Positions 8,531 to 10,137 of a DNA stretch of 53,636 nucleotides are shown one piece after another. The notes beneath the pieces are model-generated. The model did no database searches, was not told the origin of the DNA, and worked only from the letters and a program-made list of their open reading frames with translations. Every line of letters starts with the position of its first letter. Position 1 is the stretch's first letter. Origin of the DNA: Promethearchaeota archaeon (GTDB lineage Archaea > Asgardarchaeota > Lokiarchaeia > Sigyniarchaeales > SOKP01); NCBI GenBank assembly GCA_048939015.1, contig JBHLPW010000034.1, positions 1-53,636 on the forward strand. The letters run 5' to 3'. The position numbers and the translations under genes were made by a program.

Positions 8531-9007
8531 ATGAATAATTTAGAAAATGAAGTTCGAAGCATTTTAAGGAAGAAAAATTGGTTAGTTTTGGGTACTGTAG
8601 ATGAGAAAAATAACCCTCATAGTTCTGTAGTTGTCTATCAAAGTGATGGTAATGTGATTTATTGCACAACAGGAAAAGATACATTGAAGGCAAGAAATAT
8701 CAGGCACAATAGTAAGGTTTCTGTAACCCTACCATTTAGGAAAAATTTTTTCCATAAAATAATACCTGCCCCTCCTGCGGAATTACATTTCACAGCGGAA
8801 GCAGAAATTAGACCTTTCGAAGATGAACAAGCAAGAAAAATATTTGCAAAATATCTAAAGTATAATGAAAATGTAGAAAATCAGGAGGAAAGTATTTGGA
8901 TAAAAATTACACCTTCTAGGAAAATTTCGACTTATGGAGTTGGTGTAAAATTATTAAAGATGAGAAATCCAGAGAAGGCGAGAAACCTTGTTGAACTACA
9001 ATCGTAA
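8531..9007 (+). CDS. Pyridoxamine 5'-phosphate oxidase-like FMN-binding split-barrel protein
   Basis: VLGTVD...PH, IYCTT...KARNI..N.KVSV. Confidence 0.85.
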   Translation: MNNLENEVRSILRKKNWLVLGTVDEKNNPHSSVVVYQSDGNVIYCTTGKDTLKARNIRHNSKVSVTLPFRKNFFHKIIPAPPAELHFTAEAEIRPFEDEQARKIFAKYLKYNENVENQEESIWIKITPSRKISTYGVGVKLLKMRNPEKARNLVELQS

Positions 9008-9372
9008 AATTAAATCTTTGATTTATTTTTTTTAACTGATTTCTCACAAAAAATTAAGGATCATATGTAATATATAGACACAATAAAATATTTATAAGAT
9101 GTTCCAAAATTAAAAAGAAATTGCTTAATTCTTAGATTTCTTCTATTATGCTAATATTCCTAGTGTATATTAATAATTAATTTATCTTTAACGTTAGAAT
9201 TTATGAAGATTGATTAGAAAAAAAGCTACAAAGGCTTTAGATAAAGTATTATGTAAAATAAAGTCATAGTTGAATCTTTGAGGTACTAAAAAGGAAATCT
9301 TTAAAAATAAATTAAACAAATTTAACAATAATATAAAATTATGTTAAAAAACTTTAAGGAGACGTAATAAAA

Positions 9373-9471
9373 ATGGCAAAAAAAGCTGCACCAAAAAAGA
9401 AAGCTCCAGCTAAAAAGAAAGCACCAGCTAAAAAGAAAGCACCAAAAAAGAAAGGACCTGCAAAAAAATAA
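9373..9471 (+). CDS. 32-aa Lys/Ala/Pro-rich peptide, histone H1-tail/HC2-like (MAKKAAPKKKAPAKKKAPAKKKAPKKKGPAKK)
   Basis: Absent from the ORF track (too short). AAGGAGA at 9356-9362, synonymous codon variation between repeats, T-rich tracts downstream, sits alone in a ~750-nt gap. Confidence 0.75.
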   Translation: MAKKAAPKKKAPAKKKAPAKKKAPKKKGPAKK

Positions 9472-9753
9472 TTAAAATAATCAAAATAATAAAAATAATA
9501 AAAATCGAACATTTTTTTTACTCTCTATTTTTTTTAATAGAATCTTTAATAAACATAAGCTAATAAATCATTGATTTTTATTTTGTAGAAATATACATAG
9601 TTCTATTGTACTATTAATAATACAGAAAAAAAAATTGTCATCAGGCTAATAATTGTATTTTGTTTTTGATAAAAAATAACTTGAAACATAAAAATTAAAA
9701 ATAAATTCTATTATATTAAGGAAAACAAAGATAAAATCAATCATTAAAGACTT

Positions 9754-10137
9754 ATGATTAAATCAATATTAGTTTGTGATTCCCAAGGTTATCCTTTCTA
9801 TTCTAAGAATTTCGATTCCGATTTGGGTGATATAGATCCTACAATTTTTAGTGGATTAATATCTGCTATCGGAGCTATAGGAAAACAATTATTTAAAGAG
9901 GAGATTGCTACAATATCTTATGGTGATAAATACGAAATAGCGATTATAACCAAAGAGATATTCGGAACCCAAAAGTCTATATATTTTGTCTTTATAATTG
10001 AAGGTGAACCGGATTTAAAATTAATGAAGCAGTTGAGTACGAATATTTTTATTGAAACAAAGCAGGTCTTAAAAGATCCTGATACAGCTAAATTAGACAT
10101 TAAGCAAAAAGTGGATAGAATTTTAGCAAACTTATAA
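9754..10137 (+). CDS. Stand-alone longin/roadblock-like domain protein
   Basis: MIKSILVCDSQGYPFYSK...DPTIFSGLISAI pattern typical of Asgard longin-like proteins. Confidence 0.7.
   Translation: MIKSILVCDSQGYPFYSKNFDSDLGDIDPTIFSGLISAIGAIGKQLFKEEIATISYGDKYEIAIITKEIFGTQKSIYFVFIIEGEPDLKLMKQLSTNIFIETKQVLKDPDTAKLDIKQKVDRILANL

Follow-up and report, generated by a model that had tools for sequence, protein, structure and literature searches.

The window analyzed here, the whole stretch of 53,636 nucleotides of Asgard archaeal DNA, contains a gene of 32 codons (9373..9471, forward strand) that is almost certainly translated and that, judged by comparison with its relatives, is under selection as a peptide, with conserved expression signals and a narrow range of length and charge. 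Its product, MAKKAAPKKKAPAKKKAPAKKKAPKKKGPAKK, is made up of 16 Lys, 9 Ala, 5 Pro, 1 Gly, and 1 Met. By analogy with histone tails and with the C-terminal domain of linker histone H1, we propose that it is a free polycation that binds nucleic acid or chromatin in trans, a reading to which we assign a probability of about one half. What is new is the archaeal instance, the match to a histone tail encoded in the same genome, and the well-defined transcription unit. Asgard chromatin serves as the closest prokaryotic model for the way in which eukaryotic nucleosomes came by their Lys-rich, modifiable tails and linker histones, and published surveys start from annotated histone-fold proteins, so that a fold-less gene of some thirty codons would be missed.

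The peptide gene and its expression signals

The features of the locus, in window coordinates, are the following.

9293..9309, forward strand: BRE/TATA-like box GGAAATCTTTAAAAATA; consensus of the aligned orthologues (A)GAAAnnTTTAAA(a/t)a, some 80 nt upstream of the ATG
9356..9366, forward strand: 5' UTR element AAGGAGACGTA, 11 nt, 7 nt before the ATG; Shine-Dalgarno-like GGAG with a conserved ACGTA
9373..9471, forward strand: CDS of the Lys/Ala/Pro peptide, stop codon included; ATG start, TAA stop, 32 residues
9512-9519 and 9528-9535, forward strand: two T8 runs, a candidate archaeal oligo-T terminator

The sequence-only reading had singled out this ORF, and its description stands: 32 residues on the forward strand, 16 of them Lys and the others Met, Ala, Pro, or Gly, preceded by an AAGGAGA Shine-Dalgarno sequence (9356-9362, 10 nt before the ATG), followed by the T tracts listed above, and lying alone in a gap put at about 750 nt, which measures 746 nt from the upstream stop at 9007 to the downstream start at 9754. 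Tandem Repeats Finder reports an 18-nt unit repeated 4.4 times in the ORF DNA (83% matches). The host genome has a GC content of 29.8% and possesses a single copy of the gene, and no second Lys/Ala/Pro repeat of this kind was found in it at a length of 12 residues or more. After Met1, the peptide is devoid of any hydrophobic residue, as well as of Cys, His, acidic residues, and a signal peptide. A Pfam scan (E ≤ 0.01) returned no family and a PDB sequence search no match, while NCBIfam reports nothing above threshold, the only hit being Rv3852_fam with 9.9-12.7 bits against a cut-off of 100.

The TATA-like part of the box starts 73 nt before the ATG in the window, and a TTTAWA motif is present between -41 and -100 in 38 of the 40 orthologous loci described below, most commonly at -81. 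Read against the archaeal BRE/TATA consensus, the box is a putative promoter from which transcription would start near 9330-9335, giving a 5' UTR of about 40 nt. Beyond the coding sequence, a run of seven or more T occurs within 70 nt of the stop codon in 39 of the 40 loci, as compared with 12.9% (2572 of 20,000) of random 70-nt segments of the host genome with a GC content of at most 0.22. Across the loci, these elements are probably an archaeal BRE/TATA promoter with a leader of 40-50 nt and, at the 3' end, an oligo-T terminator, and the peptide gene appears by these signals to be a self-contained monocistronic unit.

The AAGGAGACGTA element is the best conserved part of the flanks compared: over 13 genes, its mean p-distance is 0.10, against 0.52 for the 6-nt spacer and 0.56 after the stop codon, with 0.40 at codon position 3 and 0.077 at non-synonymous sites for comparison. 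The motif GGAG[AT]CGTA occurs 14 times in the host genome, where 22 occurrences are expected, and only the copy of the peptide gene is in ribosome-binding position before a start codon; the element is therefore specific to this gene and is not the general ribosome-binding site of the host genome. A 16S gene was found neither in the host assembly, searched with two short motifs, nor in the related genome G006, searched with RF01959.

The surrounding genes give no clue to function. In the window they encode nitroreductases, a PNPOx-like protein (ending at 9007), a 127-residue protein (starting at 9754), and a DUF2695 protein, and elsewhere they include TPR, DUF6125, MGS-like, alkyl-sulfatase-like, Rad51-like, radical SAM, methyltransferase, FAD oxidoreductase, and Ras-like GTPase genes, all metabolic or unrelated, variable among species, and without a link to chromatin. 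HU is absent among the neighbors of the peptide gene, both in the window and in the other species read. Since the downstream genes vary and a putative terminator intervenes, the readings of the ORF as a leader peptide or as part of an operon were rejected. The downstream 127-residue ORF (9754-10137) returns no Pfam family; it is 84-86% identical in congeners, and in the genome G010 it and the peptide gene are ordered differently.

Orthologues, selection, and distribution

Forty distinct orthologous Asgard loci, distinct by sequence with the flanks included, were obtained from a DNA search, from pattern scans, and from further fetched loci. The ORF is intact in all of them, with 27-38 residues (mode 37), a Lys content of 45-54%, and a MAKK start in every case. 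By DNA, the segment 9288-9540 of the window was matched in 8 of 12 same-genus genomes (20 relatives searched), and the loci read after this search display an intact ORF of 31-37 codons that starts with MAKK and ends with KK-stop. Another 14 AT-rich contigs bearing this free ORF came from a metagenome scan. Length differences among orthologues are multiples of three throughout, and no syntenic frame-breaking decay was found; frame-breaking indels at orthologous loci had been named at the outset as an observation that would speak against a gene. Damage was seen only in one lineage (G005, G008, and relatives), in the form of a nonsense change: the Lys codon that follows residue 31 has become TAA, which shortens the peptide from 37 to 31 residues (L005:1540-1650 and L004:1588-1700); in L005, the old GPAKK-stop is still readable in frame behind the TAA. 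This change indicates that the C-terminal length is not strictly fixed.

Among the 12 unique genes of 37 codons, which align without gaps, pS is 0.53 and pN 0.042 (pN/pS 0.08), and the variable columns at codon positions 1, 2, and 3 number 4, 7, and 29 of 36, respectively. Selection on the peptide had initially been suggested from the synonymous gct/gca variation between repeat units. This variation is visible but is weak evidence, since the units are copies of each other; it is the comparison across species, with its intact orthologues, low pN/pS, and three-periodic variation, that bears the suggestion out. The repeat unit itself varies by species, being the 6-residue KKKAPA in the window, the 11-residue KKKAPAKKAGP in the common 37-residue form, KKKAAP in others, and KKKPAP in the sister genus, while the start, the length range, and the charge are preserved. 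Changing repeats with a constant start, length, and charge are, as far as sequence can tell, the behavior of a disordered peptide selected for its composition, and a length range that stays narrow despite the instability of the repeats argues for a defined requirement of charge or length. In the peptide genes, AAG makes up 33% of the Lys codons, against 21% in the long ORFs of the host genome, and the longest A run is 7.6 nt, whereas permutation gives an expectation of 9.1 nt; a run below expectation is seen in 32 of the 40 genes. This placement of AAG hints at selection against slippery poly-A, and is taken as a hint because the related genes are not independent. The locus belongs with self-contained genes of at most 40 codons and at least 40% Lys that are under purifying selection among relatives.

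That the region encodes no such protein, and is instead an A-rich repeat RNA, an antisense hydrophobic ORF (9354..9512, reverse strand), or a leader peptide for the downstream gene, is extremely improbable. The antisense frames are open, as follows from the scarcity of T on the sense strand, and one of them shares third positions with the peptide frame, so that it would also exhibit three-periodic variation and periodicity alone cannot exclude it; besides, the predicted RNA fold is slightly better than that of shuffled sequences (z = -1.93). However, 22 of the 25 Asgard sequences checked lack an antisense ORF that starts with ATG and covers the whole region, on which ground ORF 9354..9512 was rejected, and the promoter, Shine-Dalgarno sequence, ATG, stop codon, and oligo-T run are all conserved on the forward strand. 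An Rfam scan of positions 8900-9850 returned no match, and the long-range pairing of the predicted fold, between the Shine-Dalgarno region and the terminator, does not recur in relatives and was likewise discarded.

Regarding distribution, a strict start-anchored pattern scanned over 185,579 species genomes reports 39 stretches, 23 archaeal and 16 bacterial. The archaeal stretches, on AT-rich contigs assigned to Promethearchaeota, Promethearchaeia, other Asgard archaea, or 'uncultured archaeon', are all free ORFs of 28-37 residues. The pattern search in Asgard genomes proposed in the sequence-only reading has thus found intact orthologues in relatives, and its claim of a free-standing gene with its own signals in an Asgard archaeon agrees with the Promethearchaeota and Promethearchaeia contigs on which these orthologues lie. 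The bacterial stretches are mostly N-terminal extensions of longer proteins, the exceptions being a 118-residue all-repeat protein, a 63-residue ORF that looks frameshifted, and a free 28-residue ORF on a GC-rich Dormiibacterota contig. The latter (L056) and a metagenome contig (L201), both GC-rich (0.67-0.69), carry free Lys/Ala/Pro micro-ORFs of 28 and 22 residues, respectively, behind AAAGGAGGTGA, a bacterial counterpart of the Asgard gene. The 118-residue protein (L047:95-448, reverse strand), from a Gemmatimonadetes MAG, is built of KKKAPA/KKKAVA repeats throughout and returns no Pfam family; a similar all-repeat ORF of more than 116 residues is present on the metagenome contig L193.

A looser pattern, M-A-K-K-x-A-[AP]-..-K-K, was run over 400 genomes of the phylum and matched 86, the genome of the window counted: 77 of 134 in the family of the window and 6 of 14 in a sister family; two others gave 1 of 3 and 1 of 12, and the remaining 30 families 0 of 236. 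Searched in reverse as a negative control, this pattern gave essentially no matches, and the forward matches lie far above chance. On reading, the matches divide into free peptides, tailed histones, and a small remainder of proteins with Lys/Ala/Pro-rich N-termini. The free peptide itself was found only in the family of the window, in four genera, and in none of the other 33 families sampled. It is carried by at least 24 of the 54 genomes of the genus (plus one truncated by a contig end), by at least 17 of the 42 genomes of a sister genus, and by one genome each in two further genera, these counts being lower bounds, as the pattern does not capture variants such as MAKKAPKKK in G002. Known carriers such as G080 went undetected in an HMM search of 81 family genomes, whose tallies were therefore taken as lower bounds and not used for absence. 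In the sister family, two broader patterns run on five genomes reported only tailed histones and unrelated proteins.

Within the genus, five congeners that are 95-99% complete (G003, G004, G011, G064, and G076) are devoid of the free peptide according to the start-anchored and UTR patterns run on all five, to DNA searches of G003, G004, and G011, and to a profile and a KKAPxKK pattern applied to G003, G011, G064, and G076. The syntenic site in G003, G004, and G011 holds other genes and no remnant of the peptide gene. By these sequence comparisons, the gene is patchy, lineage-restricted, and dispensable. Five negative near-complete congeners and three sites without a remnant imply that the peptide is not a core component of chromatin, and patchiness argues against a core role of any kind.

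It had also been supposed that gene callers would miss such a gene, which holds only in part. All four exact peptide sequences looked up are absent from a collection of 15 billion proteins, but the ESM Atlas contains clusters of 'hypothetical proteins' of 22-36 residues with very similar features (0.95-0.96; 107-721 members, no taxa recorded), so some gene callers do emit such ORFs. A profile compared with 1.84 billion representative proteins returned three matches, all of 230-359 residues. The literature search yielded no description of the free peptide, and the accessible parts of bioRxiv 10.64898/2026.07.02.735847 and of the review PMC10919886 do not mention it.

Likeness to histone tails and proposed role

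The closest relative of the peptide in its own genome is the N-terminal tail of a tailed histone. This histone comprises 78 residues (L208:1-237, corresponding to G000:C76:43534-43770, reverse strand; PF00808, 40.4 bits against a cut-off of 21.4), and the tail in front of its fold, MAKKKAPAKKKAEG, parallels the beginning of the free peptide. Tailed histones of the genomes concerned score 37-43 bits against the same PF00808 cut-off of 21.4, and about 50 related genomes possess the same histone, with a tail starting MAKKKAPAKK and often with an identical 30-nt 5' end. The first 10-12 residues of the free peptide are those of the tail start, for example in G001 and G080, and the host tail matches the first 12 residues of the G080 peptide; for the peptide of the window, 8 of 12 residues match. 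In some genomes the tail is a longer Lys/Ala/Pro repeat, such as MAKKKAPAKKAAPAKKKAPAKKKGES in L159. Tails measure 13-28 residues in the family of the window, mostly 13-14, and 19-47 residues in the sister family (four genomes). Within the family, their length is alike in genomes with and without the free peptide (median 13 vs 14), and the idea that carriers of the peptide have shorter histone tails fails there.

The shared start may stem from common descent, the tail-coding 5' end having been duplicated or the micro-gene having been fused to a histone fold. It may equally stem from convergence of low-complexity repeats, which would be sufficient for the resemblances: the match is short and of low complexity, the 5' UTRs of the peptide gene and of the histone gene have no recognizable similarity, and MAKK starts are common among the small ORFs of the host genome that are preceded by a Shine-Dalgarno sequence. 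Of the thirteen such ORFs that start with MAKK, three have histone-like sequences and two are small and histone-fold-like; Pfam confirmed one histone.

Several other ORFs of these genomes have similar beginnings. A 65-residue ORF of the host genome, MAKKAAVEALFVKSKVREYIKGKG... (L209:84-281, reverse strand; G000:C10), returns no Pfam family and has a promoter and leader that match the upstream region of the peptide gene at 76% of DNA positions; its relative in L076 gives sub-threshold matches to the histone fold and to DUF1931, and the L209 ORF may be a small histone-fold-like protein. A 420-residue AAA_5 (MoxR/dynein-related) ATPase (L077:10-1269) bears the N-terminal module MAKKKAPAKKKPAP, as do similar proteins in L083 (449 residues) and L145, which indicates that Lys/Ala/Pro heads are found on more than histones in the family of the window. 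Three ORFs of 20, 52, and 44 residues starting MAKKKAP (L129, L119, and L101, respectively) are shortened tailed histones that may be pseudogenes or assembly errors; they run into histone or unrelated sequence and were rejected as members of the free-peptide group. In two sister-family genomes, proteins of 238-251 residues (L073:1501-2214 and L074:1501-2253) start with MAKKKAA and possess a long Lys/Ser-rich N-terminal region.

Regarding function, a fold-less peptide that lacks a signal peptide and has only Met1 as a hydrophobic residue is expected to act by charge. Histone N-terminal tails, the H1 C-terminal domain, protamines, and the PAKK tails of mycobacterial HupB all work by charge on DNA, and the same Lys/Ala/Pro module is found attached to DNA-packaging folds, to histones in the Asgard lineage and to HU in bacteria. 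PAKK-type tails of HupB/MDP1, Ku, and other proteins bind or compact DNA, according to the accessible parts of the reports on them. The product would be a chain of about 31 residues after the probable loss of Met1, intrinsically disordered and with a net charge near +16, that would bind the phosphate backbone of DNA or of histone-bound DNA and neutralize its charge, and this neutralization would compact or bridge the DNA. Here we infer expression, a DNA or chromatin target, and an effect on compaction alike. Given the match between its N-terminus and the tailed-histone tail of the same genomes, the simplest picture would be that of a histone tail supplied in trans. If made and bound to chromatin, the peptide would be an unlisted and probably abundant component of Asgard chromatin, and would make tail function in trans directly testable.

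A bolder form of this proposal, which we consider unlikely, is that the peptide is in the full sense a histone tail encoded as its own gene: trans-acting, possibly acetylatable, and serving both for charge neutralization and as a modification platform for archaeal histone-DNA fibers whose own tails are short. The relevant contrast is that between tails of 13-14 residues in the family of the window and tails of 19-47 residues in the sister family, where the free peptide was not found. If this were true, Lys-rich tails would be autonomous modules, free, fused to histone folds, or split from them, and would offer a concrete route to histone tails and to fold-less linker-histone-like proteins near the root of eukaryotes.

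With a charge of +16, the peptide would be expected to bind polyanions of every kind, of which rRNA is the most abundant in the cell. The peptide could accordingly be an RNA- or ribosome-associated polycation, a counter-ion for rRNA, other abundant RNA, or polyphosphate, in the manner of tiny basic ribosomal proteins or polyamines. A highly charged, unstructured chain would suit such a role, the strong-looking expression signals of the gene resemble those of abundant small proteins, and one of the MAKK-starting ORFs of the host genome presumably resembles a ribosomal protein. However, the patchy occurrence in near-complete congeners speaks against a core ribosomal component, the gene is not adjacent to ribosomal genes, and the peptide has no match among solved structures; we regard this alternative as rather unlikely.

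In cultured Loki archaea, the Lys-rich tails of the HLoB histones of Lokiarchaeia, about 16-32 residues long, are reported to be abundant, methylated, and acetylated, and an acetyltransferase with broad specificity for Lys-rich disordered tails is described together with a sirtuin acting on them (accessible part of bioRxiv 10.64898/2026.07.02.735847). These enzymes, and the identity of the first 10-12 residues of the peptide with a histone tail, would suit a mimic or decoy that competes for or buffers the acetyltransferases, deacetylases, and readers of tails, and so tunes chromatin indirectly. We find this quite improbable: the tail match is short and of low complexity, and the enzymes were reported, so far as the same source goes, from a different family of the order, one in which the searches turned up no free peptide.

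The accessory-gene behavior of the locus, with its patchy spread, variable neighbors, and autonomous mini-gene, would also fit an exported or defensive polycation, antimicrobial or antiviral, that binds foreign nucleic acid or envelopes. Yet the peptide has neither a signal peptide nor a hydrophobic or amphipathic face, no transporter or immunity gene adjoins it, and the pattern search of viral contigs returned five stretches, none of them AT-rich or a short Lys/Ala/Pro ORF, all of which makes a defensive role very improbable.

Relation to known basic proteins

By sequence, the peptide stands outside the H1, Hc2, HU, histone, and protamine families, and it would work like their basic tails. 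The HLoB-type tailed histones come closest, as they occur in the same organisms, start with MAKKKAPAKK(K), and share the Lys/Ala/Pro make-up; with 27-38 residues, the peptide is near the upper end of the 16-32 residues given for HLoB tails in the accessible part of bioRxiv 10.64898/2026.07.02.735847. They differ in that a fold follows the tail, whereas the peptide has no fold, gives no match to the archaeal histone family PF00808, and possesses its own locus, promoter, 5' UTR, and terminator.

The term linker-histone-like, proposed at first sight of the sequence, fits the Lys/Ala/Pro composition but none of the other H1 features that could be tested, and no neighbor of the gene provides a chromatin link. 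Like the C-terminal domain of H1, the peptide is Lys/Ala/Pro-rich, disordered, and highly basic, at about a third of the length of that domain. The winged-helix globular domain of H1/H5, which we take to be Pfam Linker_histone, is absent, as 32 residues leave no room for it and Pfam returns no family. The S/T-P-x-K phosphorylation motifs characteristic of the H1 tail are likewise absent, the peptide of the window being devoid of Ser and Thr and a few orthologues having a single Thr or Ser outside such a motif. Kinetoplastid H1, which has no globular domain, illustrates that a basic sequence can act alone, its mechanism being the neutralization of DNA charge. No sign of common descent with H1 is apparent in the sequence.

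Among free polycations, fish protamines and the Coxiella SCV peptide ScvA are chains about 30 residues long, with no folded domain, that condense DNA. Protamines are Arg-rich, and the two groups together are rich in Arg or Arg/Gln. The peptide resembles them in size and in standing free, but has no Arg and belongs to an unrelated lineage with different regulation.

Bacterial proteins with PAKK or AKKA tails include Chlamydia Hc2 and Pseudomonas AlgP. In these proteins the module is fused or far longer, whereas the peptide stands alone, has 27-38 residues, and is archaeal. It gives no Pfam match to the Hc2-like family PF07382; the nearest named ESM Atlas cluster contains PF07382 in 17% of its members (score 0.90), which is a lead only. 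Mycobacterial HupB/MDP1 and M. smegmatis Ku, as the accessible parts of the reports describe them, have the same repeat chemistry, but with the tail fused to a folded DNA-binding domain. The HU fold PF00216 is absent from the peptide and from the adjacent genes, and is present in the bacterial look-alike L041 (55.7 bits), which bears the same start-anchored pattern as an N-terminal extension. Such N-terminal Lys/Ala/Pro extensions, 40-70 residues long, are found in L041:401-829 and in L023, L033, L034, L037, L038, L042, L044, L048, and L054, with HU confirmed for L041 only. Their hosts are marine gammaproteobacterial lineages (Litorivivens, Spongiibacteraceae, and Pseudomonadales) and a Paracoccaceae MAG, and the extensions begin with the same residues as the Asgard peptide.
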